The notes under the pieces were generated by a model that was not told the DNA's origin, ran no database searches, and saw only the letters and a list, made by a program, of their open reading frames with translations. Positions 5,697 through 60,589 of a stretch of 64,000 nucleotides of DNA are shown here, one piece after another. The first letter of the stretch is position 1. Every line of letters begins with the position of its first letter. Made by a program: the position numbers and the translations under genes. The DNA is from Minisyncoccota bacterium (GTDB lineage: Bacteria > Patescibacteriota > Minisyncoccia > Phycocordibacterales > PALSA-1337), in contig DATDZD010000002.1 of assembly GCA_036516895.1 (NCBI GenBank), forward strand, positions 13,769 through 77,768. Reading direction: 5' to 3'.

Positions 5697-6830
5697 ATGT
5701 TTGACTTAAAGATAATGCATTCCGTTCTTCAGCAATTAGAAGAAGAGCGAGGTATACCAAAAGAGAAAATGCTTGAGGCGATTGAGCTGGCTTTGGCTAC
5801 TGCCTACAAAAAAGAATACGGCAAAAAAGGTCAGATTATCAGGGCTATATTTGATTCTAATAGCGGAAAAGTGGAGTTCTATCAGGTCAAGATAGTAGTA
5901 GATGAATCAAAGGTCATTATGGAAGATGAGGAGGAGCAAGAAATGGACCTAAAAACTATTGACCAAGAAAATATAAAGGTCAGATTCAATCCCGAACATC
6001 ATATTCTCCTAGCCGATGCAAAAAAGATAAAAAGAGATGCAAAAATAGATGATGATATCGTCTTTCCTCTGGAATTGAAAGAAAACTATGGTCGTATTGC
6101 CGCTCAAACAGCAAAGCAGGTCATCATTCAAAAGATAAGAGAAGCGGAAAAAATATCTGTTTTGAGCGAATATGGACAAAAAGAAGGAGAAATAGTGTCT
6201 GGAACAGTCCAACGACTAGAAAGAGGAGCATTATTCATTGATATGGGACGAGCAGTGGGAGTAATACCATACGAAGAACAAATACCAAACGAACATTACA
6301 AACAAGGAGAGCGCGTAAGAGCTTATTTATACGCAGTTGAAGAAACTCCAAAGGGTATTATGCTGAAGCTTTCCAGAGCACACCCGAAATTTTTATCAAA
6401 ACTTTTTGAAATAGAAGCTCCTGAAATAGCGCAAAGAGTAGTGGAGGTCAAAGCCATAGCTCGCGAGGCGGGTGCTCGTTCAAAGATAGCTGTTCATTCC
6501 ACTGACAGTCATATAGACCCTATCGGCTCTCTTGTCGGACAACGCGGGGTGAGAGTTTCCACAGTTATGAGCGAATTAGGTGGAGAAAAGATTGATATTA
6601 TTGAGTGGAACGAGGATATGTCAAAATTCATAGCCGAGGCACTCTCTCCGGCAAATATAGCAAGCATTGAACTTATTAAAGAAGAAAATCGCGCCATAGT
6701 AAAAGTCTCTGAAGACCAACAATCTCTAGCTATAGGAAAAGGCGGTCAAAATGTGCGTTTAGCCGCAAAACTCACTGGATGGAAAATAGATATTCAGCCA
6801 GTAGCTATAGGTAGTATAAAAAGCGAATAA
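5697..6830 (+). CDS. nusA: Transcription termination/antitermination factor NusA
   Basis: N-terminus MFDLKIMHSVLQQLEEERGIPKEKMLEAIELALATAYKK is the NusA N-domain signature, followed by S1 and KH domains (GSLVGQRGVRV..., IGKGGQNVRLAAKLTGWKIDI). The track start at 5457 overlaps the divergent pilB, so the ATG at 5697 is preferred. Confidence 0.85.
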   Translation: MFDLKIMHSVLQQLEEERGIPKEKMLEAIELALATAYKKEYGKKGQIIRAIFDSNSGKVEFYQVKIVVDESKVIMEDEEEQEMDLKTIDQENIKVRFNPEHHILLADAKKIKRDAKIDDDIVFPLELKENYGRIAAQTAKQVIIQKIREAEKISVLSEYGQKEGEIVSGTVQRLERGALFIDMGRAVGVIPYEEQIPNEHYKQGERVRAYLYAVEETPKGIMLKLSRAHPKFLSKLFEIEAPEIAQRVVEVKAIAREAGARSKIAVHSTDSHIDPIGSLVGQRGVRVSTVMSELGGEKIDIIEWNEDMSKFIAEALSPANIASIELIKEENRAIVKVSEDQQSLAIGKGGQNVRLAAKLTGWKIDIQPVAIGSIKSE

Positions 6831-16087: not shown

Positions 16088-16161
16088 TGGTGCGGGATGG
16101 GAGAGTCGAACTCCCCACCACAGTTTGGAAAACTGTTATTTTACCGATAAACTAATCCCGC
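16088..16161 (-). tRNA. tRNA-Gly (anticodon UCC), CCA encoded
   Basis: Reverse complement GCGGGATTAGTTTATCGGTAAAATAACAGTTTTCCAAACTGTGGTGGGGAGTTCGACTCTCCCATCCCGCACCA. The acceptor stem is GCGGGAT/ATCCCGC. The anticodon stem ACAGT/ACTGT encloses the loop UUUCCAA, giving UCC. The T-loop is TTCGACT. An initial read as Trp was rejected after folding. Confidence 0.7.
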
Positions 16162-16270
16162 TTTCGTTTATTCATACTTTATAATTATTTACTTTTCCTT
16201 AATTCACCCATGAACAAAACTTATACTACCAGAAATATTTTTTTTTACTACTTCCCCACTTTCATGTCCT

Positions 16271-16702
16271 TTACATATTCCCAGTATGCTCATTCTCAAC
16301 AATCTTTTTTATCTCATCAACTTCTTCTTTCATCTCTTTTACTGTCTCACTCAACTCTTCTATTTGTCTTTCTTCTACTCCAACTTCTTTCTCTGTTCTT
16401 TCAGTTGCTTTTTTTTGATGTTTCAATCCAGATATAAGAATAGTGTCTCCAATAAAATAAGAGACGAACAGCCCTGTAGCCAAAAGGATGGCGGTAACGA
16501 TTAACATATTAATTGGTTCATAAAAGATGAAACCGAGAATACCGCCTTTTGCTTGTAAAATATCTGCTGTATGCCACACTCCTCTCCAAAATAATACAAT
16601 AGCTATACCACCAATGATTGTGTATATAATAGGATAATGGCTCAAATGACCTCGTACTTTATCTTCAAATTTATCAAAAAAGATTATGATTGATTTCCAC
16701 AT
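16271..16702 (-). CDS. Hypothetical membrane protein (3-4 TM) with an acidic coiled-coil C-terminus
   Basis: 143 aa. Hydrophobic segments IIGGIAIVLFW, GFIFYEPINMLIVTAILLATGLFVSYFIG. Confidence 0.45.
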   Translation of the reverse strand: MWKSIIIFFDKFEDKVRGHLSHYPIIYTIIGGIAIVLFWRGVWHTADILQAKGGILGFIFYEPINMLIVTAILLATGLFVSYFIGDTILISGLKHQKKATERTEKEVGVEERQIEELSETVKEMKEEVDEIKKIVENEHTGNM

Positions 16703-16759
16703 GTAAGTATTTAAATACCATCATAACATTATTTAATTCATAATACTGTAATCTATATA

Positions 16760-16835
16760 TGGTCGGAGCGCCGGGATTCGAACCCGGAGTCGCCTGTTCC
16801 CAAAACAGGAATGTTAACCGTTACACCACGCTCCG
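16760..16835 (-). tRNA. tRNA-Pro (anticodon UGG), CCA encoded
   Basis: Reverse complement CGGAGCGTGGTGTAACGGTTAACATTCCTGTTTTGGGAACAGGCGACTCCGGGTTCGAATCCCGGCGCTCCGACCA. The anticodon stem CCTGT/ACAGG encloses the loop UUUGGGA. The T-loop is TTCGAAT. Confidence 0.8.
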
Positions 16836-17009
16836 ATGATTTTCTTTAACTTTCTTTCTTTAACTTTTTTAACTTTTTATTACTAAGAACTTTCACATAC
16901 TAGCACAATAACCAATAAAACTCCATATTTTTAGCTCTGATTTGATAAAAACCTTATGTAAATATGAATTTATATAATATCTGCAAAATAATGTTTGTTG
17001 TGATGAGAT

Positions 17010-17396
17010 TTATAGAATAACATTTTCCATAAAAGTAACCTTTGCTCTTCTCGTTTTTTGGTCCATACGAACAACAATGACATGGAATTGAAATTCGGTA
17101 TCCAGCTTATACTTTCTCTCGAGCAAATAAGTCTGAACAGCTCTTTTAAGGCGTTTGCATTTAAGTTCATGGACATTTTCTTCTGGTCTATATTCATCTT
17201 TTGACCTATTATTTGTCTTTTTTACTATTATGCTTTTGACCTCAATGAAGTGGATTATGCCATCTTTTGCAACGATAATATCAATTTCACCCCACTTTTT
17301 GCTATAGTTTCTCTCAATAATAAGAAAATTATGCTTCTTTAGCCACTTACAAGCAATTTCCTCACCAATATCTCCTATAAGACGGTTATAAGCCAT
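17010..17396 (-). CDS. yraN: YraN/UPF0102 family endonuclease
   Basis: 128 aa. N-terminus [55 protein letters not shown] fits the UPF0102 signature (GE.D.I). Confidence 0.7.
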
Positions 17397-17408
17397 ATTA
17401 TTTGTCCT

Positions 17409-17448
17409 TTATACACATTGTCCACAGACTTATCCACAGTTATACACA
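17409..17448 (+). promoter_or_regulatory. Second phased array of DnaA-box-like 9-mers (TTATACACA, TTGTCCACA, TTATCCACA perfect, TTATACACA) at about 10-11 bp spacing
   Basis: Directly seen between the yraN start (17396, minus strand) and the tRNA-Gly(GCC) 3' end (17491). All four boxes share one orientation. Confidence 0.45.
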
Positions 17449-17490
17449 TCCATACACAGTATGACCCCCAATAATCTACAACTTTCCTAA

Positions 17491-17564
17491 TGGTGCGGGC
17501 ACCGGGAATCGAACCCGAATCTCGTCCTTGGCAAGGACGTGTTCTACCACTAAACCATGCCCGC
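17491..17564 (-). tRNA. tRNA-Gly (anticodon GCC), CCA encoded
   Basis: Reverse complement GCGGGCATGGTTTAGTGGTAGAACACGTCCTTGCCAAGGACGAGATTCGGGTTCGATTCCCGGTGCCCGCACCA. The anticodon stem CGTCC/GGACG encloses the loop UUGCCAA. Confidence 0.8.
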
Positions 17565-17748
17565 ATTTTGTTATTTTTACATATTATATTATGCAAGTGT
17601 AAATCACTTTCAATTCAGTATAAGATAATTCGTCTTTTTTTACCAGATTTTTTGCTATATAATACCACTTTCCTACCCCCCCCCACCAATACTTTTATCC
17701 CATTTATTTCTCTCTATTCTCTCCACTTTATGGGGTACAGATCACTTG

Positions 17749-17821
17749 TGCGCTCGGAGGGACTCGAACCCCCAACCCCCTGGTCCGAAGCCAGGTGCTC
17801 TATCCATTGAGCCACGAGCGC
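17749..17821 (-). tRNA. tRNA-Arg (anticodon UCG), CCA not encoded
   Basis: Reverse complement GCGCTCGTGGCTCAATGGATAGAGCACCTGGCTTCGGACCAGGGGGTTGGGGGTTCGAGTCCCTCCGAGCGCA. The anticodon stem CCTGG/CCAGG encloses the loop CUUCGGA. Confidence 0.75.
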
Positions 17822-45152: not shown

Positions 45153-46499
45153 ATGAATGAACATGCACAACTTTGGGAAAATGCCTTGGTAGAAATAGAA
45201 CTTGCTGTTTCTGAAGCTAATTTTTCCACATGGTTTAAAGGCAGTTTTATCTTAAAGCAAGAAGAGGGAACTATATACCTCGGAGTTCCCAACTCGTTTA
45301 CTCGCGACTGGCTTTATAAGAAATTTCATCCTGTAATATTGAGAACTCTTAGAAAAATGAATGAGCAAGTCCGCTCTCTTGAGTATGTTATAACAAAAGA
45401 CGCTGAAAAGAAGAAAGCTGAGGAAAAAAAGAAAGCTTTGCCAGCGCCTACCACATCTATGCCTCTTCAAGATTTCTATATAAACAAAGAAGATAATCTA
45501 AATCCAAGATATATCTTTGAAAACTTTGTTGTGGGACCTTTCAATGAGCTTGCCAATGCCGCCTCAAGAACTGTGGTAAAAAATCCGGGTACTTCTTATA
45601 ATCCTTTGTTCATATATGGAAATACAGGTCATGGCAAAACTCATCTTATCCAAGCGATAGGAAATCATATAAAGCAGGACCATCCTCAGAAAAAGGTCTT
45701 TTATTTGACTTCTGAAAGATTTGGTTCAGAGTATTTCAGTGCTCTTCAGGGAAATAAAGCTCAACAATTTAAAGAAAAATACAGAAAGTATGATGTTATT
45801 ATTATGGACGATGTTCAATTTTTCTCGGGAAAAGATAAATTCCAAGAAGAATTTTTTTATCTTTTTAATACTTTCCACGAAAGCAATCGTCAACTCGTCT
45901 TTTCTTGCGACAAACACCCAAACTTCATTCCAGGACTTGAAGACCGCATTAAATCAAGATTTAATGCGGGCATGATTATTGAATTGCCCGCTCCAGACCA
46001 TGAATCTCGCATAGCTATCCTCAAAGCCAAAAGTTTGGCAAATAATGTAATGTTAGAAAATAACATTCTTGAATTTTTAGCTTCAAATATTGAAAGTAAT
46101 GTCAGGGAACTTGAAGGAGTAATAAATACTCTTGTTTGTCAGACACAGTTGAAAGGTCGTCCTCTTTCCTTGATTGAAATTAAAAATTTAGTAAAAAATA
46201 GCACAAAGCCAAAGAAAAACATATCAATAAAGGATGTTATAAAGCTTGTTTCAGATTTTTATAATATAAACGAGGAAAGTGTATATGATAAAACAAGAAA
46301 AAAAGAGGTGGTAAAGCCAAGACAAGTGATTATGTATCTTCTTAGAGAGGACTTAAATGTGTCATTTCCTTCAATAGGAGATAAAATGGGCGGAAGAGAC
46401 CATACAACAGTTATTCACTCTTATGAAAAAGTTAGAGAAGAAATCAAAACTGATTCAATTTTAATGGAGGAAATATCCCAAATACGGTCCATGTTATAA
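45153..46499 (+). CDS. dnaA: Chromosomal replication initiator protein DnaA
   Basis: 448 aa. The AAA+ region has NPLFIYGNTGHGKTHLIQAIGN and IIMDDVQFFSGKD. The C-terminal domain IV has a DnaA signature-like IGDKMGGRDHTTVIHSYEKV. Confidence 0.9.
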   Translation: MNEHAQLWENALVEIELAVSEANFSTWFKGSFILKQEEGTIYLGVPNSFTRDWLYKKFHPVILRTLRKMNEQVRSLEYVITKDAEKKKAEEKKKALPAPTTSMPLQDFYINKEDNLNPRYIFENFVVGPFNELANAASRTVVKNPGTSYNPLFIYGNTGHGKTHLIQAIGNHIKQDHPQKKVFYLTSERFGSEYFSALQGNKAQQFKEKYRKYDVIIMDDVQFFSGKDKFQEEFFYLFNTFHESNRQLVFSCDKHPNFIPGLEDRIKSRFNAGMIIELPAPDHESRIAILKAKSLANNVMLENNILEFLASNIESNVRELEGVINTLVCQTQLKGRPLSLIEIKNLVKNSTKPKKNISIKDVIKLVSDFYNINEESVYDKTRKKEVVKPRQVIMYLLREDLNVSFPSIGDKMGGRDHTTVIHSYEKVREEIKTDSILMEEISQIRSML

Positions 46500-46716
46500 A
46501 TTGTGGATATTGTGTGGAAAGATACTGTATTTATGTGTATAACTTTAGATAAAAATATGATAAATAAAAAACTTATAGAAGATATTAGAAGTAATTCAAA
46601 AATTATCAACAATTTAATTATTAAAATATATTTAAAAATATCGGTTTAAAAAAGTTATCCACATATCCACAGGACTAATAATAGTAATAAGTATTAATAT
46701 AAATTAAATTAAAAAT
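46500..46716 (+). promoter_or_regulatory. dnaA-dnaN intergenic AT-rich region with tandem DnaA boxes (TTATCCACA perfect, ATATCCACA), an oriC candidate part
   Basis: The sequence aaaaGTTATCCACATATCCACAGGact sits within a 217 bp spacer of more than 80% A+T. Confidence 0.45.
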
Positions 46717-47823
46717 ATGAGAATAGAATGTGCACAAGATAAATTAAAAGAAGCAATAACTCTAGCCGACCATATTTCAGGAAAACATATGACTCTTCCT
46801 GTTTTATCTTGTATTCTTCTTGAAACAAATAAAAACAATACTTTAACTATAAAAGCTACAAATCTTGATTTAGGTATAGAGATTACAATCCCCGCCAAAA
46901 TCACAGAACAAGGAGTGGTCGCTATACCAAGTGGAATATTTTCTTCTTTTATAAATAATATATCTGAAGGAGAAAAAAGTGTTAAATTTGAGACCCAAGA
47001 TAATAATATAAAAATAAACACCCCAAAAAGCTCTGGAACCATAAAAACCTTACCACATGAAGATTTCCCCAGTATTCCTCGTATAACAAGCAAAAATACC
47101 TTTTTATTAAATTCTTCAGATTTTATAAAAGGATTAAAATCAGTATGGTACAGCTCATCTATTTCAAGTATAAAGCCAGAATTATCAAGTGTTTATATTT
47201 ATTGTGAGGATGAATTTGTTATATTTGTAGCCACGGACTCATTTCGTTTGGCTGAAAAAAAGGTAAAAATAAAGAAAAGTAAGGATTTTGGTCAAATACT
47301 CATACCTCATAAAAATATTCCTGAAATATTAAGAACTTTAGAGAATATACAAGGAGAAATAGATATTGAACTTGAAAAAAATCAAATATCTTTTAGTCGC
47401 GATGGTTTGTATCTTGTCTCCCGTGTTATTGATGGTATATTTCCAGATTACAAACAGATTATTCCAAAACAAAATGAAACTGAAGTTACAATACTTAAGC
47501 AGGATCTCATAAATGCTCTTAAATTATCAAATATTTTTTCAGATAAATTTAATCAAATAAATATAAAAGTCGCTCCATCCTCCAAAAAATGCGAAATTAG
47601 GACAAAAAATAATGATATTGGAGAAAATGTAACTATTTTTGATGCTGTTGTTACTGGGGAGTCAGTAGATATAAATTTTAATTATAAATATATTATTGAT
47701 AGTTTTCAATCCATTGATTCTGATAGCTTAACTCTCACTTTTAATGGATTACACAAACCAATGATTATTACTCCAGTATCGGATAATACCTTTAGATATA
47801 TAGTAATGCCTATGAATAGATAG
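46717..47823 (+). CDS. dnaN: DNA polymerase III beta sliding clamp
   Basis: 368 aa. MRIECAQDKLKEAITLADHISGKHMTLPVLSCILLET... has the three-domain beta-clamp pattern and lies directly after dnaA. Confidence 0.9.
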   Translation: MRIECAQDKLKEAITLADHISGKHMTLPVLSCILLETNKNNTLTIKATNLDLGIEITIPAKITEQGVVAIPSGIFSSFINNISEGEKSVKFETQDNNIKINTPKSSGTIKTLPHEDFPSIPRITSKNTFLLNSSDFIKGLKSVWYSSSISSIKPELSSVYIYCEDEFVIFVATDSFRLAEKKVKIKKSKDFGQILIPHKNIPEILRTLENIQGEIDIELEKNQISFSRDGLYLVSRVIDGIFPDYKQIIPKQNETEVTILKQDLINALKLSNIFSDKFNQINIKVAPSSKKCEIRTKNNDIGENVTIFDAVVTGESVDINFNYKYIIDSFQSIDSDSLTLTFNGLHKPMIITPVSDNTFRYIVMPMNR

Positions 47824-53579: not shown

Positions 53580-53948
53580 ATGGAAACACAAACAGGTATA
53601 GGAGAATTTGGACCAATTTATGAAGGAATAAAAGGAAAATATGCTATAGATTTTTTATTGAAAAAGAAATCTGGGGAAGTTCCTGGTGCAATGAAAAGAA
53701 AAGAATTGGGAAATATTGATTTTATTTATGGAAAGCAGGGTGAGCAAGGTTACGGATTAGCTCATATTGAAGAATATCATCCAGATGTTCTTCCTTATCT
53801 TGTGTCAATTATTCAACATGGAGAAATATTCAAGCAAGCTAAAGATCGCATTATTATTGTTCATAAAGTTCCTTTAGAAAAAGGGGTGGCCGTGATAAGA
53901 CTGGATTGGAATGGTATACGGAAACAGTGGCTTGTTAGTGCTTTTTAA
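53580..53948 (+). CDS. Hypothetical protein
   Basis: 122 aa with no recognised family. It is preceded by the conserved motif shared with comM. Confidence 0.45.
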   Translation: METQTGIGEFGPIYEGIKGKYAIDFLLKKKSGEVPGAMKRKELGNIDFIYGKQGEQGYGLAHIEEYHPDVLPYLVSIIQHGEIFKQAKDRIIIVHKVPLEKGVAVIRLDWNGIRKQWLVSAF

Positions 53949-55570: not shown

Positions 55571-56434
55571 TTATGGTTTTAATTTTTTTAGCACCTCTTT
55601 TATTTCTTCTTTTTGTTTTTTCTGTAGCTCTTTCATTTCTCTCTTGTGTCTCGCCGTCATCTTTTTTATATCCTCTGCAGATGGCAATGATTCTGGATAA
55701 ATGTTTGACTTAATCAACACCCCTCTGATGTTCCTATTATTTGTTACATGCTCATTAAGTATACTACCTTTTCCTTGTAGGTCTTTTCTTTTTGTATTTT
55801 CGGTAGTTATAGCTGTTGCAAATTCTTTTGCTGAGATTGTTACCTCTGGTAAAATGTCTGCAAGCGGTGCATTTTTCTTTGCACCAAGTCTCCTTTTCAT
55901 ATCTTCTGTTGTTTTTCCACCAAATAGTGCCTTGTCACCAAAGCTTCGTATTTCAGATATACCACGACCATCTACACCTCTACCGAATACTAATACGGCG
56001 AAAGCCTTTTCAGTAATGGTTAGCTTTTCTCTAGCGCTAATTCTCTTGAGTTCTGCTATTCTTTGTTCAATCATTTCCATCTTTCTGGTTTGTGTTACAA
56101 AATATGCTTGTGCAAAGGCAATTTCTGTTTTTCGAGGATCTCCATTAAGAGTAATTAGATAACAAGCGTATCTAGTCAGCTTAATATCTGGTATTTCTTG
56201 CTTCGTGTTTTTTCCAACAATTATTAGCTTCGTGACGTCACGAAAGTGATCCGCAACAGAACCCCTGGCATTTTTACAAGCTTCTTTTGCTCTCACGATA
56301 GCCGTCTCAAAGTTTTCCCAACGCAAATAACCCAATAAAGGATACAAATCTCGTGCATACCAATACTCTACGCCATTTTCACGACGGACATTATCAAAAG
56401 TTTTGTATAGAATTTGTAATTGAGTATTTTCCAT
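55571..56434 (-). CDS. DinD / Bro-N (KilA-N-like) domain protein
   Basis: The N-terminus NGVEYWYARDLYPLLGYLRWENFETAIVRAKEACK resembles Bro-N/DinD antirepressor-like domains, and a Lys-rich coiled-coil tail follows. The family call is from memory. Confidence 0.45.
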   Translation of the reverse strand: MENTQLQILYKTFDNVRRENGVEYWYARDLYPLLGYLRWENFETAIVRAKEACKNARGSVADHFRDVTKLIIVGKNTKQEIPDIKLTRYACYLITLNGDPRKTEIAFAQAYFVTQTRKMEMIEQRIAELKRISAREKLTITEKAFAVLVFGRGVDGRGISEIRSFGDKALFGGKTTEDMKRRLGAKKNAPLADILPEVTISAKEFATAITTENTKRKDLQGKGSILNEHVTNNRNIRGVLIKSNIYPESLPSAEDIKKMTARHKREMKELQKKQKEEIKEVLKKLKP

Positions 56435-56537: not shown

Positions 56538-57296
56538 TTACTTATTATTTTCCCAAATATAATCAAACATAATACGAAATGTCTCAGTGATGTATTTACT
56601 TTCAATTACCACAGTAACAATTGATTCTTTGAAGTTGGTAATAGCTACTTTATCTCCATAAATAATGATTTGAGCGGGAATGTTTAGTTTTTCTGTAGAG
56701 ACTTTCTTTCGAGTAATGAGGTATTTCTCATCTTCTCCAACTGGCATCACGGTTAGTTGTCCTTCGACATATGGAGTAATGGCTTTTGTTCGTATATTCT
56801 TTGCTGTTTGTTTTTCTATATGCTCTTTTGTCAGATTAAGAATCTCTGGTATGGCTTTATATATAGGAGCACTTATGATTAAAATATCTTGCCCAATATC
56901 GAGAATATCCCCATGTACTCTTTCAATGCCCTCCACTCCTTCATAAAATTGGATGTTCGGTTTACCTGAAAGAGCGTTAAACTCTGATGATAATATGCCG
57001 AATATGGTACTGAAGTCTGAAAAAGCGTGGTTAAGGTTCTGTCTATTTTTCTCAACCATTTCCTTAATATTCCTAGGATGTTTTGGCAAGAAAAGTGCGA
57101 TCTTGCCTATGTCATCTCGCTTCTCAACAAGATTTAGAGCTATGAGCTGGTCAATAATTTTATATGTAAGTGCTCTACCCACAGCTGTTTTTGAAGCTAT
57201 TGTTTTTGCCGAAGAGAAGCCATTGCTTAAAAGATAGGTATATATTTTTGCTTGTTCAAGACTAAGTCCGCATTCCACTAATATTTTTTCATTCAT
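56538..57296 (-). CDS. TrmB-like winged-helix transcriptional regulator
   Basis: The N-terminal HTH LSLEQAKIYTYLLSNGFSSAKTIASKTAVGRALTYKIIDQLIALNLVEK is typical of the TrmB family, and the C-terminal region is TrmB_C-like. Confidence 0.5.
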   Translation of the reverse strand: MNEKILVECGLSLEQAKIYTYLLSNGFSSAKTIASKTAVGRALTYKIIDQLIALNLVEKRDDIGKIALFLPKHPRNIKEMVEKNRQNLNHAFSDFSTIFGILSSEFNALSGKPNIQFYEGVEGIERVHGDILDIGQDILIISAPIYKAIPEILNLTKEHIEKQTAKNIRTKAITPYVEGQLTVMPVGEDEKYLITRKKVSTEKLNIPAQIIIYGDKVAITNFKESIVTVVIESKYITETFRIMFDYIWENNK

Positions 57297-57395: not shown

Positions 57396-57424
57396 TTGAC
57401 AAATCTGTTCAGTATGCTATGATT
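57396..57424 (+). promoter_or_regulatory. Candidate sigma-70-like promoter (TTGACA, 17 bp spacer, ATGATT) driving the GC-rich islet operon
   Basis: TTGACA is at 57396-57401 and ATGATT at 57419-57424, with the first islet ATG at 57434. A perfect DnaA box TGTGGATAA at 57374-57382 lies just upstream. Confidence 0.3.
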
Positions 57425-57433
57425 GTTTCAGAT

Positions 57434-57781
57434 ATGAAAACAACATACTTCGGTTTCGGGATCGCTCCCAGCATGTTTCCCTCGAATTGCACCATTCGTA
57501 AGCAGGAGCTTACGGTGGAGCAGGCAAAGGAAACCATCGCCGGGGGCGTGACCTCCTGCCTCAACCCTAGCCACAAGGCGAGCATTGAGGTGATGGAGAC
57601 GAGGTTCGGCATGAAGGTGGAGATACCGGCGAAAGCGCCGAGCGTCTCCCTCCAAGCTGGAGACCGCTTGGTGGTGATGGGGGTCAGGGGACTCCCCCGG
57701 TTGGAAAACCGGCACGAGTACACCCCCGAGGAGGTGGCAGGTGCGAAGTTCGACTTCGCGCTCTTCACGGTCGGGGAGTAA
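57434..57781 (+). CDS. DUF1874-like (STIV B116 / AcrIII-1 / Crn2 ring nuclease family) candidate; GC-rich foreign gene
   Basis: 115 aa from MKTTYFGFGIAPSMFPSN.... The pattern aromatic-xxx-S-x-M-F, a His at residue 47 (NPSHKAS), GDRLVVMGVRG and RLEN resemble the DUF1874 fold family as recalled from memory. Local GC is about 60% against about 33% for the host. The start follows the promoter at 57396. Confidence 0.4.
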   Translation: MKTTYFGFGIAPSMFPSNCTIRKQELTVEQAKETIAGGVTSCLNPSHKASIEVMETRFGMKVEIPAKAPSVSLQAGDRLVVMGVRGLPRLENRHEYTPEEVAGAKFDFALFTVGE

Positions 57782-57959
57782 TCTCGTAGGGTTGAAGATG
57801 AACCTAAAAACTTTCCTCTCCTGCAGAGTGTGCAGAGAACATGTGATGGTACAGCATATAAATGTATCCATAATGTGATTTGGGCAACCAAGTCCGACTC
57901 TGGGGAAGCTCCAGGGCGCCTGACAAGCGGAAACTGTTGGGATGATTCATTTCATCTCT

Positions 57960-58010
57960 TGCCTCTCGGAATGTATATTCCGACTGATGAGTCCGAAAGG
58001 ACGAAAGGCA
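57960..58010 (+). ncRNA. Hammerhead ribozyme, type III (HHR-1)
   Basis: UGCCU-C^-UCGGAAU-GUAU-AUUCCGA-CUGAUGA-GUCC-GAAA-GGAC-GAA-AGGCA. Stem III is UGCCU/AGGCA with A15.1-U16.1. The cleavage site is C17, after 57965. Stem I is a 7 bp hairpin. The CUGAUGA core is at 57984-57990. Stem II is GUCC/GGAC with a GAAA loop (G10.1-C11.1), followed by G12 A13 A14. All invariant core nucleotides are present. Confidence 0.75.
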
Positions 58011-58233
58011 GAATATCTTTGAATTTCCTTGTGAAAGCAAGTTTGTAAGATTAGAGAATTGAGTCTTGCAGTAAAAATAAAGGTGTCATACCAAATCATG
58101 CAAGTGAGGTGAGTATGAAAAAGAAAAGCTGAAAGTGCTTTCGACCTAACTTGGCCGAGATGAACAGCCCGGCCCATCATCCAGAGAGTGACCCTGCTAC
58201 GGTACGACAGTTCATTTTGACTGTCATACCGAA

Positions 58234-58446
58234 ATGGGATGGGTGCTTGCACCCATGTTCAAAATTTTCAGACCGATTCCTGCTAGTAAGGAATCGGTAA
58301 AGGATTTGCTCCGTAGCGTGATTGGTAACAATCAGCGTAAGGAGTGGTATAAATCCCGCTCAAGGACCACCATCCTTGAGCACTTCATTGAGTCCTTGAT
58401 TGAAAGATTATTGAGGATTCATAGAGTTTCAGTTTCAGTTTTTTAA
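58234..58446 (+). CDS. Small hypothetical ORF within the HHR-flanked unit
   Basis: 70 aa with no strong RBS and no recognisable family. It may be non-coding. Confidence 0.2.
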   Translation: MGWVLAPMFKIFRPIPASKESVKDLLRSVIGNNQRKEWYKSRSRTTILEHFIESLIERLLRIHRVSVSVF

Positions 58447-58474
58447 AAATTAAATAAAGAAAGGAGGTGAAAGG

Positions 58475-58834
58475 ATGCGAAGTTCGTGTCGGGAAGACGG
58501 GAGGCGCAATACCCTTGGTTATTTCAGAGGTGCTCGGGAATTTTTTCCTCAAGGCACCTTTAAGGAAATCGAGTTAGTTGTGGCTCTCGATCCAGTCTGG
58601 CATTCATCGGATGGAATCAGCGAGGTAGTCATGGCGATTGGGGCTGCAGAGCGTAAGCTCAATAGTCTCAAAGACCGAAAGGATTACCTGGTAAGATCCA
58701 TTGCCGATGATCAGAATTGGTGGCGTCCTTCCCCAGAAATGAAACAGCTATATAGACAAGAGCTTAAAACTCTTCGTCAAGAAGCTGTGAAATTTCAGAG
58801 GGAACTGGATGAACTCCAAGCCATTATTGGATGA
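58475..58834 (+). CDS. Hypothetical protein (islet ORF) with a strong Shine-Dalgarno sequence
   Basis: AAAGGAGGTGAAAGG sits immediately before the ATG, a context absent from host genes. 119 aa with a C-terminal coiled-coil-like region. Confidence 0.5.
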   Translation: MRSSCREDGRRNTLGYFRGAREFFPQGTFKEIELVVALDPVWHSSDGISEVVMAIGAAERKLNSLKDRKDYLVRSIADDQNWWRPSPEMKQLYRQELKTLRQEAVKFQRELDELQAIIG

Positions 58835-58972
58835 CCGCAGGAAAGACTGCCAAAGGATCACTCCAACCTTTGTAATAGAAGAGTGAAAAGTTCACCTGAA
58901 CAAGGATGAAACTTTTGTCACCGTCATAAAATGGTGAGTTGGGGTTGCAGACCCTGGGGATCGTAAGATTCT

Positions 58973-59027
58973 CTTCTGTCTCGGAATATGTATTCCGACT
59001 GATGAGCTCAAAAGAGCGAAACAGAAG
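58973..59027 (+). ncRNA. Hammerhead ribozyme, type III (HHR-2)
   Basis: CUUCUGU-C^-UCGGAAU-AUGU-AUUCCGA-CUGAUGA-GCUC-AAAA-GAGC-GAA-ACAGAAG. Stem III is 7 bp (CUUCUGU/ACAGAAG). The cleavage site is C17, after 58980. Stem I is identical to that of HHR-1. The CUGAUGA core is at 58999-59005 and stem II is GCUC/GAGC. Confidence 0.75.
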
Positions 59028-59073
59028 TTTTTATAAATATTTTTTAAATCAAAAAAAGAAAGGAGGTGAAAAA

Positions 59074-59406
59074 ATGAAAATCGTGCGTTTGGAGCCAGAG
59101 AAGATTCTCGAAGCGATTCGTATCGCAAGTGAGAGTTTTGGAACATTCCACTTTACTCATCTGCCGGAGAGGATCAGGGATGGTGTAGATGAGCTTGCAG
59201 AGGATTTTAGGCTATACTCGTTTTGGGAAAGTAGCGACTTTTGTTGCTGTTTTTCTCCAAAGTGGGCTGCTGAAGATGCCTCTGATAGGGGAATGGCGGT
59301 GGATTCCAAGGATCTCGCGAAAAGGAAGAAGGGATTCGCAAAAGTCTGCCAAATTTTTGGCTGTTCAGCTAAGGATGAGGTGGTTGGGATCCGTCCAATT
59401 CTTTGA
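59074..59406 (+). CDS. Hypothetical protein (islet ORF) with a strong Shine-Dalgarno sequence
   Basis: AAAGGAGGTGAAAAA sits before the ATG at 59074. 110 aa, MKIVRLEPEKILEAIRIASESFGTF.... No family recognised. Confidence 0.5.
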   Translation: MKIVRLEPEKILEAIRIASESFGTFHFTHLPERIRDGVDELAEDFRLYSFWESSDFCCCFSPKWAAEDASDRGMAVDSKDLAKRKKGFAKVCQIFGCSAKDEVVGIRPIL

Positions 59407-59471
59407 GCTTCTAAAACTGCGACCTACGGCACGCGGGGAAGAGTAACTTCCTGGCAACAGAATTGTTACAG

Positions 59472-59490
59472 GAGAATCCATGATTCTCCA
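59472..59490 (+). terminator. Hairpin GGAGAATC-CAT-GATTCTCC followed by an A/T-rich tract, a candidate islet terminator
   Basis: Perfect 8 bp stem. A weak T-tract (aatttattaatttcg) follows. Confidence 0.25.
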
Positions 59491-59539: not shown

Positions 59540-60589
59540 TTACAACAATTTTCCAGACCCCTTTATCTCCAAATGCGCGTACGCCTTCTCTGTCGGAGCT
59601 CGCCCGCGAGGTGTGCGCTCGAGAAGGCCGAGCTGGATTAAATACGGTTCGTACACTTCCTCTATCGTCGCTTGTTCTTCGGAAAGGGCGGCGGCTATGG
59701 TATTTAAGCCAACGGGCTTGCCACCGAATTTGTTTATCATTGTCTTCAATATATCTCTATCTGCACCGTTCAATCCCAAATGGTCCACACCCAACATTTT
59801 TAACGCTTTCTCAACTATATCTTGAGAGAGAGATGTTTTCTCAATCTGGGCGTAATCTCTGCATCTTTTTAGAAAATAGTTTGCTGTTCTTGGAGTAAAT
59901 CTGCTTCTTGACGCTATGGCTTTTATGGCGTCTGGGTGAATATCAATATCAAGTATCTTTGCTGACCTTTTTATAATTTCTCCTATTTCGCTTTCAGTAT
60001 AAAATTCAAGCTTGAAAACTCCACCAGAAAAACGAGAACGCAGGGGAGAAGAAATCATAGCTATGCGAGTAGTAGCGGCAATAAGTGTAAAAGAGGGAAG
60101 TTCAAGCTGAATAGTTCTAGCCGAAGGTCCTTTTCCAATGATAATATCAAGCGTCCCAGTTTCCATAGCTGGGTAAAGCACTTCTTCAATAGCTTTGTTT
60201 AGCCGATGTATTTCGTCTATAAAAAGAATATCTCCGTGAGATAGATTTGTAAGAATTGAAGCCAAATCTCCTATCTTTAATATAGCAGGTCCAGAAGTGA
60301 CTTTCATTTGAGCTTCTGTTTCTTTTGAAATGAGATGAGCTAGTGTTGTTTTTCCCAAGCCGGGCGGTCCATAGAAAAGAATATGCTCTGGAGGGTGATT
60401 GCGCTCTTTTGCCGCAGTTAAAAGTATATGCAGATTATCCTTTATTCCTTTTTGTCCTATATATTCTGCCCAACGGCCTGGACGCAAGGTCTGGTCAAGG
60501 TAACCGGACTCGCTATTTCTGTCAGTCACCCTATCTCTCGTCGCGTTTTTTTTCTTGCCATTTTCTGTTTTGGGTGATATTTTTTTCAT
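59540..60589 (-). CDS. ruvB: Holliday junction branch migration ATPase RuvB
   Basis: LDQTLRPGRWAEYIGQKGIKDNL..HILFYGPPGLGKTTLAHLIS (Walker A), Walker B ILFIDEIHRL, and a winged-helix C-terminal domain. Confidence 0.9.
   Translation of the reverse strand: MKKISPKTENGKKKNATRDRVTDRNSESGYLDQTLRPGRWAEYIGQKGIKDNLHILLTAAKERNHPPEHILFYGPPGLGKTTLAHLISKETEAQMKVTSGPAILKIGDLASILTNLSHGDILFIDEIHRLNKAIEEVLYPAMETGTLDIIIGKGPSARTIQLELPSFTLIAATTRIAMISSPLRSRFSGGVFKLEFYTESEIGEIIKRSAKILDIDIHPDAIKAIASRSRFTPRTANYFLKRCRDYAQIEKTSLSQDIVEKALKMLGVDHLGLNGADRDILKTMINKFGGKPVGLNTIAAALSEEQATIEEVYEPYLIQLGLLERTPRGRAPTEKAYAHLEIKGSGKLL

Follow-up and report, generated by a model that had tools for sequence, protein, structure and literature searches.

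The window analysed here is a stretch of 64,000 nucleotides from a Minisyncoccota bacterium (assembly GCA_036516895.1, contig DATDZD010000002.1, positions 13,769 to 77,768 of the forward strand). It is ordinary Patescibacteria chromosome (~35% GC) and carries nusA, an RNase Y gene, dnaA-dnaN, tRNAs, ruvC, yebC, ruvB and genes for type IV pili and type II secretion. Two compact hammerhead ribozymes, HH1 and HH2, are set into a 2.1-kb unit on the plus strand (43-61% GC) that is flanked by a gene for a TrmB-like regulator and by ruvB (59540-60589, minus strand). The features of the locus are these (L-numbers designate related loci, defined below; ORF, open reading frame; 3'-UTR, 3' untranslated region):

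56538-57296, minus strand: gene for a TrmB-like helix-turn-helix regulator, the divergent partner of the operon (Pfam PF01978, E 1.7e-8).
57396-57423, plus strand: sigma-70-type promoter-like site (TTGACA, 16 nt, TG-n-TATGAT; 11/12 matches).
57434-57781, plus strand: first gene, predicted to be of DUF1874 / STIV B116 / AcrIII-1 (Crn2, Csx16) fold, 115 amino acids, 60% GC.
57874-57958, plus strand: module A, a 3'-UTR RNA element of two hairpins and a pseudoknot that ends in the hairpin 57939-57958 (nhmmer, covariation).
57958-58012, plus strand: HH1, type III hammerhead ribozyme (RF00008, 42.2 bits; predicted cut 57965/57966).
58013-58474, plus strand: structured leader of the proposed ORF119 mRNA, including module E and the Shine-Dalgarno site AAAGGAGGTGA (fold z -9.1).
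About 58277-58460, plus strand: module E, a four-hairpin structured 5' leader overlapping 'ORF70' (consensus with L027 and L012).
58475-58834, plus strand: ORF119, a small protein with no family assignment (full-length homologues at 49% and 44% identity).
58835-58973, plus strand: module B, a conserved 3'-UTR element that ends in the hairpin 58956-58973 (nhmmer).
58973-59027, plus strand: HH2, type III hammerhead ribozyme (RF00008, 49.4 bits; predicted cut 58980/58981).
59028-59073, plus strand: AU-rich 46-nt leader with Shine-Dalgarno site AAAGGAGGTGA (59059-59069), a near-repeat of 58441-58477.
59074-59406, plus strand: ORF110, an orphan small ORF with a strong Shine-Dalgarno site.
59417-59489, plus strand: module D-like element and terminal hairpin (59471-59489, terminator-like; blastn to L027 7412-7460 and to L009).

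The ribozymes and their relatives

Both elements are confirmed, at the level of sequence, as genuine type III hammerhead ribozymes, their cleavage itself being a prediction. Each core contains CUGAUGA, the G10.1-C11.1 pair, GAA, A15.1-U16.1 and C17 (the spacer from CTGATGAG to CGAAA is 10 nt), and for each 55-mer the canonical three-way junction, in which loops close stems I and II and stem III is open, is both the minimum free energy (MFE) and the centroid fold (z = -3.3 and -4.0). The original prediction made for this stretch had described two canonical type III hammerheads that would cut at 57965/57966 and 58980/58981 and release an internal product of 1015 nt; the RF00008 matches, the full cores and the covariation described below bear out the class, and the positions are as it gave them. 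It had also taken the two stem I hairpins for identical, which is true of the helices (UCGGAAU/AUUCCGA) and not of the loops (GUAU vs AUGU); stem III has 6 bp in HH1 and 7 bp in HH2. The search that it had recommended, with the Rfam model RF00008 (Hammerhead_3, curated gathering score 48.5 bits), places HH2 over the gathering score at 49.4 bits (E 7.6e-8 for the whole window) and HH1 some 6 bits under it at 42.2 bits (E 8.2e-6), and finds no third hammerhead on either strand of the 64 kb. Against a family-specific model, R1, which was itself built with HH1 included, HH1 scores 77 bits. Two other samples yielded contigs with the same gene order in which the 2.3-kb locus is 100% identical, so that the sequence is real and an artefact of assembly was rejected.

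For comparison, 79 genome loci with a DUF1874 homologue were fetched; L001-L084 are DUF1874 loci, L085-L137 are IMG/VR contigs and L138-L169 are 32 metagenome loci. Hammerheads were located with a descriptor script and a covariance model built from 22 of the matches. The model finds 34 type III hammerheads in about 20 of 80 DUF1874 loci, all on the gene strand (the opposite strand of these loci yields no credible hammerhead), mostly no more than 3 kb downstream of the gene and one to three to an array; the 32 metagenome loci hold a further 41, each on the same strand as module A. Arrays of two or three are found in L001, L008, L010, L011, L013, L020, L027, L076 and metagenome loci, with neighbouring ribozymes 441-5224 nt apart (median 792; some metagenome loci duplicate genome loci), and the 1015-nt spacing in the window is typical of related arrays. 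A search of 26 DUF1874 loci without hammerheads for other ribozymes and known RNAs returned only tRNAs.

In the alignment of 22 hammerheads the core columns are invariant and 96.8% of cells are paired, a figure that falls to 31-46% when the partner is slid by 1-3 columns; changes on both sides are seen in 14 of the 17 pairs (stem I 6/7, stem II 3/4, stem III 5/6), so that the support from compensatory changes which the original prediction had asked of stems I-III is there. Such covariation argues that the hammerhead structure is under selection. The conservation of loop II (RAAA) and of parts of loop I in these relatives exceeds what pairing needs; in hammerheads, a tertiary contact between the two loops allows fast cleavage at physiological Mg2+. 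L001 has the order TrmB-like gene, DUF1874 gene, hammerhead, ORF119 homologue (49% identity), conserved 3' region, hammerhead, and its hammerheads differ from those of the window by compensatory changes in all three stems. L176 has the other ORF119 homologue (44%); both homologues are equal in length to ORF119, and hammerheads precede them as well.

The ribozymes do not stand alone. Directly 5' of stem III the RNA folds into a further hairpin (57939-57958 at HH1, 58956-58973 at HH2), and in the MFE fold of both this hairpin stacks on stem III without a gap. Of 31 copies, 25 have such an abutting hairpin with 5 bp or more, as against 34% of shuffles, and its sequence varies among the copies. 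IMG/VR has this compact ribozyme (with a 7-bp stem I, a GUGU/GAGU-type loop and a GUCC-RAAA-GGAC stem II) in 53 contigs, most of them phage-sized and a few viroid-sized, found by scanning with a pattern of looser core plus stem II; viral contigs scanned for the exact stem I and core of the window gave no match, nor did blastn of hairpin plus HH1 against GenBank phages, for which the query is too short and divergent. Among 43 distinct phage copies (from L085-L137), 86% have a hairpin of 6 bp or more directly against the ribozyme, as against 18% of shuffles, and in the phage copies an ATG lies 25-45 nt downstream of the ribozyme; no DUF1874 gene is detectable near them, and modules A-E are absent there too. 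The phage-copy hairpins are GC-rich and up to 14 bp long. Recurring as it does in Patescibacteria and in phage copies, the succession of hairpin, type III hammerhead, short leader and gene therefore appears to be a general intergenic unit, of which the window has two.

Genes, noncoding modules and chromosomal setting

The promoter-like segment is 83-88% identical in L001, L010, L027, L013, L011, L020 and L009 and is presumed to be active. This conserved region sits between the TrmB-like and DUF1874 genes. In more than 20 related Patescibacteria loci a TrmB-like homologue lies directly upstream of the DUF1874 gene and divergent from it; the TrmB-like protein is likely to be a regulator of the hammerhead operon. 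ATG 57434 was chosen as the start of the first gene because the promoter lies inside a longer ORF starting at GTG and because the homologues begin MKTYFGFG. The protein matches PADLOC Csx16 (E 2.9e-5) and, under the curated cut-off, Pfam PF08960 (E 0.002); a profile made from its homologues matches AFV3-109, with the conserved histidine of the catalytic family aligned. Its AlphaFold2 (AF2) model (mean predicted local distance difference test, pLDDT, 90.8) has AcrIII-1 (6SCF) as best match in the Protein Data Bank at a template-modelling (TM) score of 0.77, and 6SCF, 2J6B, 2X4I, 2J85 and 8Y7F all lie at TM 0.67-0.77. The modelled structure thus assigns the first gene to the DUF1874 / AcrIII-1 / Crn2 ring-nuclease fold family. 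The protein has 314 homologues, mostly in Ca. Taylorbacteria and other Patescibacteria. The DUF1874-type gene has 55-68% GC in nearly all 80 loci (L001-L084 range), 10-25 points above its flanks, whatever the GC content of the host.

ORF119 has an N-terminal motif, SCRE..GYFRGxREFFPxGxF, and a coiled-coil-like C-terminus. It belongs to a very small protein family (P0124, P0126, P0127); the N-terminal motif is also found fused to unrelated C-termini beside an HU gene (L172-L174) and, without hammerheads, in a phage-like string of genes (L175). For ORF110, a search of 5.8 billion proteins returned only an identical copy, and there is no family match. Its leader (59028-59073) is a direct repeat, D2, of 58441-58477 at 84% identity, and the same leader follows HH-a of L027. 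The strong ribosome-binding sites that the original prediction had placed behind each ribozyme are found at very different distances: AAAGGAGGTGA lies 32 nt past HH2, and the site of ORF119 (58460-58470) some 450 nt past HH1. Of the small genes said to be bracketed by the ribozymes, ORF119 stands. 'ORF70' (58234-58446) was rejected as a gene: it has no Shine-Dalgarno site, its region gives nucleotide matches and no protein matches, a 40-nt insertion in L012 breaks the reading frame, and conservation is at the level of nucleotides and structure. To judge from these alignments it is probably a structured leader.

Noncoding modules make up much of what is conserved here. Module A, of which nhmmer finds 10 copies in related loci, is present in L006, L007, L008, L009, L012, L020, L027 and the 32 metagenome loci (L138-L169), and consists of an invariant GGGGAAGCUCC hairpin, a second hairpin and then a variable hairpin. 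The loop of the second hairpin forms a covarying pseudoknot with a downstream UGUU/UACU, in the haplotypes GAC[G/A]/[U/C]GUU and GGU[G/A]/[U/C]ACU, which is fully complementary in 22 of 28 distinct copies. The module usually lies just 3' of the DUF1874 gene, as it does in most close relatives, and a hammerhead follows it directly in about 20 of 34 instances. Module B (nhmmer matches at L001 1909-2009, L027 6797-6930, L012 5134-5233 and L020 6222-6299) contains an invariant UCACCGU...AUGGUGA hairpin and is better conserved in nucleotide sequence than the ORFs that precede it. Module E, placed before cargo ORFs led by a Shine-Dalgarno site, has compensatory changes in 18 of 54 pairs when compared with L027 (7000-7160) and L012 (4300-4520); the z of -9.1 refers to the fold of the entire leader between the HH1 cut and ORF119. 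In Rfam, modules A, B and E have no credible match even at permissive thresholds. In L027 (7412-7544) a third hammerhead follows the module and hairpin that the window keeps at 59417-59489 without a ribozyme; the window array seems to have lost its last member.

The operon has as neighbours ruvC, yebC, a Bro-N/PDC-S13 gene, the TrmB-like gene, ruvB and a T2SS/T4P (type II secretion/type IV pilus) ATPase gene, and yebC is adjacent in L007 and L009 as it is in the window. Gene annotation shows no integrase or phage structural gene near the operon in the window. A recent mobile island or prophage was rejected as the principal explanation on these grounds: the TrmB-DUF1874 pair and the yebC synteny are conserved between genomes, and an integrase is absent. 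A protein with a PBECR1 nuclease domain is encoded at 53580-53948 (plus strand), within the cluster that runs from ruvC-yebC to ruvB, and the Bro-N protein at 55571-56434 (minus strand) matches the PADLOC candidate PDC-S13 (E 6e-99; PHROG 8036); the presence of these two genes beside the operon suggests that the region between ruvC-yebC and ruvB is a small defence-type islet. Farther off, a cluster of four tRNA genes lies at 16091-17821 (minus strand). The dnaA-dnaN pair at 45153-47823 (plus strand) comes after a stretch of 28% GC at 46-48 kb, and the window therefore probably spans the replication origin region.

Proposed processing of the operon transcript and its alternatives

What might two self-cleaving RNAs do in a chromosomal operon? 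The answer that we favour, and hold to be rather probable, is that HH1 and HH2 are functional, are embedded in one operon, and cut its polycistronic RNA into separately stable mRNAs. The ribozymes themselves, their fold and covariation, the conserved architecture and the hairpin are observed. The operon would run from the promoter at ~57396 through the DUF1874 gene, HH1, the leader and ORF119, HH2 and ORF110 to the terminal hairpin; during transcription each ribozyme would fold and cut itself, after C57965 and after C58980, so as to yield a DUF1874 mRNA, a 1015-nt ORF119 mRNA and an ORF110 mRNA. Hammerhead self-cleavage leaves 5'-OH and 2',3'-cyclic phosphate ends, and it is from this established chemistry that we infer the ends of the products. 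Those lying upstream of a cut would terminate in the hairpin abutting stem III plus a 7-nt tail with a 2',3'-cyclic phosphate; those lying downstream would have a 5'-OH and then, in order, the compact ribozyme fold, a leader of their own and its Shine-Dalgarno site. In bacterial RNA decay 3' exonucleases are hindered by a 3' hairpin, and a structured 5'-OH end is a poor substrate for RNases that are stimulated by a 5'-monophosphate (the RNase Y gene of the window has been mentioned). If cleavage takes place in vivo, stability and translation should be affected accordingly: the units would be uncoupled, each with a stability and a translation of its own, and insulated from their neighbours.

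The single conserved promoter and the Shine-Dalgarno sites on the ORFs behind the ribozymes speak for such processing, and the splitting of a polycistronic transcript, which the original prediction had offered as one of two outcomes, also fits the abutting hairpins and the units found before phage genes. There is precedent in prophage operons, where Perreault et al. 2011 (PMC3088659) described hammerheads clustered on either side of single genes, one set, the triple arrangement of Agrobacterium tumefaciens, flanking the anti-restriction gene ardA; such clusters cleave in vitro and in E. coli, circular or spliced products were looked for and none was detected, and the authors read them as devices for processing polycistronic RNA.

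Several observations weigh on the other side. HH1 falls below the curated Rfam threshold. In L007 (6437-6510) the ribozyme is absent, with the hairpin and the genes kept; L006 (~6456-6500) has the remnant of a deleted hammerhead, and in L011 (7552-7610) G12 is changed to A and stem I has mismatches, the genes being kept in both. Relatives with absent or decayed copies and intact genes imply that the ribozymes are dispensable; by this comparison of sequences they turn over among close relatives, and the benefit that they confer may be small. Modules A, B and E, moreover, are conserved and are not accounted for by processing.

The two cuts could also be thought to serve the segment between them. 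The ribozymes would then excise 1015 nt for circularisation, by RtcB or by reversal of the hammerhead reaction, into a (possibly translated) RNA like those of viroids, satellite RNAs and retrozymes. Two hammerheads on the same strand yield exactly the ends that RtcB joins, arrays spaced 440-1400 nt recur, and in 6 of 13 consecutive pairs from related loci the stem III halves of one ribozyme and the next could form 5 bp or more, as against 22% of unrelated pairs; this last excess, however, has its explanation in the UCUGU/ACAGA stem III that many of them have in common. Within the window the 5' strand of the HH2 stem III and the 3' strand of the HH1 stem III pair over 1 bp only, too little to rebuild a hammerhead; the repeat is limited to the 52-nt ribozyme (81% identity) and leaves out its flanks; close relatives have 0-3 ribozymes per locus, some of them decayed; the 64-kb window, which is part of the genome, has no RtcB gene; and comparable arrays gave no circular or spliced products (PMC3088659). 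We regard such a circle as distinctly unlikely, the suggestion of a circular RNA in the original prediction having gained nothing from the analysis, and a retrozyme- or viroid-like element was rejected on the 1-bp cross-pairing and the want of long direct repeats. Somewhat less improbable, and still unlikely, is that ribozymes, modules A/B/D/E and leader mark the borders of exchangeable gene cassettes, as in an integron, and serve primarily the gain, loss or shuffling of cargo and not the processing of mRNA. Different loci have unrelated ORFs between their ribozymes, often orphans, while what surrounds these (noncoding modules, leader and ribozymes) is conserved; L001 has the same site as the window and a different cassette content; and for the 'DUF1874 motif' an attC-like role has been raised (Weinberg et al. 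2017, PMC5737381). In the window, however, the arrays have no integrase, reverse transcriptase or other recombinase beside them, and no mechanism joins the self-cleavage of RNA to the exchange of DNA cassettes; the conserved core and the compensatory stem changes point to selection on RNA catalysis, and the variability of content can come from ordinary recombination at conserved modules.

A regulatory switch, in which module A or the DUF1874 or TrmB-like protein gates the folding of the ribozymes and makes cleavage conditional, has in its favour that module A is strongly conserved and structured, with its covarying pseudoknot, and is placed between the DUF1874 gene and the hammerhead as often as stated above (~20/34 directly ahead of the ribozyme). 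Yet module A occurs without a ribozyme in L007, L006 and several metagenome loci, HH2 and the phage copies do without module A, and no alternative pairing between module and ribozyme was identified; this too we would call improbable, to the same degree as the circle. That the ribozymes are leftovers of mobile or phage DNA, now without function in the cell, would agree with the abundance of the subtype in phage contigs, the decayed or missing copies in relatives and an island that is GC-rich relative to the genome. It is hard to reconcile with more than 70 intact copies that have perfect cores and compensatory stem changes and lie all on the coding strand, or with a chromosomal locus conserved across many Patescibacteria, and is the reading to which we give the least credence. 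The AcrIII-1-fold enzyme family makes 2',3'-cyclic phosphates from cyclic oligoadenylate, and one may speculate, at very long odds, that the TrmB-like/DUF1874/hammerhead-array locus is a dedicated RNA-cassette system of Patescibacteria, in which the excised RNAs, with their 5'-OH and 2',3'-cyclic phosphate ends, undergo joining or circularisation or are sensed; modules A, B and E would serve as recognition or sensor elements, and the AcrIII-1-fold protein would act on these RNAs or be controlled by them. If true, this would go well beyond the simple processing of mRNA.

Comparison with known systems

Arrays of hammerheads that punctuate operons have been known from phage-related DNA since 2011, and the window holds a further example, which is well conserved. 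To call such operons rare, as the original prediction did, was to overstate the case: they have been described and tested (PMC3088659), and the subtype is present in dozens of IMG/VR phage contigs. Its other statement, that it knew of none described in genomes like those of the candidate phyla radiation (CPR), agrees with the literature searched, in which no description of hammerhead arrays in Patescibacteria/CPR was found. New are the host, a member of the Patescibacteria, the TrmB-DUF1874 setting on the chromosome and its conservation, the hairpin that is constantly present upstream, and RNA modules so far uncatalogued. Why bacterial hammerheads are associated with genes was still stated to be unknown in 2023 (PMC10085705). 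The locus offers a conserved, chromosomal, non-prophage setting in which orthologous operons have intact, decayed or absent ribozymes, a natural comparison for what the ribozymes do, and the constant upstream hairpin, common to the phage copies, makes the hypothesis of processing and insulation concrete and testable. Hammerhead arrays are extended to Patescibacteria, and structured RNA modules are exposed beside an AcrIII-1-like gene; the knowledge of hammerhead catalysis is unchanged, and the class of element is not a new one.

With the type III hammerheads of RF00008 the window copies share the complete core, the three-helix junction, the C17 site and the conserved loops I and II; they differ in being very compact, 55 nt in all, with a 7-bp stem I closed by a loop of 4-5 nt and a 4-bp stem II closed by GAAA or AAAA. 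The tandem hammerheads of viroids, satellite RNAs and retrozymes likewise comprise two same-strand type III ribozymes that bracket about 0.4-1 kb; the window, in contrast, lacks identical long repeats, its stem III halves are incompatible, and its segment carries an ORF led by a Shine-Dalgarno site in a DNA-encoded bacterial operon with a sigma-70-type promoter. Like the modules of the window, the 'DUF1874 motif' of Weinberg et al. 2017 (PMC5737381) is structured, noncoding, linked to DUF1874 and alternates with ORFs, in consecutive intergenic regions; it was described as a multistem motif and not as a hammerhead. Module E, or perhaps module A, could be this motif.

The units in IMG/VR phage contigs have the same ribozyme subtype, abutting upstream hairpin and start codon shortly downstream as the window, which differs from them in having a DUF1874 gene and modules A-E. 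An engineered counterpart is RiboJ, a synthetic insulator in which a self-cleaving hammerhead and a hairpin, upstream of the ribosome-binding site, give the downstream gene a defined 5' end independent of the sequence upstream. In RiboJ the hairpin is downstream of the ribozyme, whereas in the window it is upstream and would stay with the upstream product.

The prophage arrays of Perreault et al. (PMC3088659) likewise have several same-strand hammerheads in one transcription unit, flanking individual small genes of varying identity, and where those adjoin the anti-defence-type gene ardA, the array of the window adjoins a gene of DUF1874/AcrIII-1 fold. The differences are of setting and of companions: the window site is a conserved chromosomal one between yebC/ruvC and ruvB, paired with a TrmB-like gene and without an integrase or phage structural genes nearby, and its ribozymes come with a 5' hairpin and with noncoding modules that recur.

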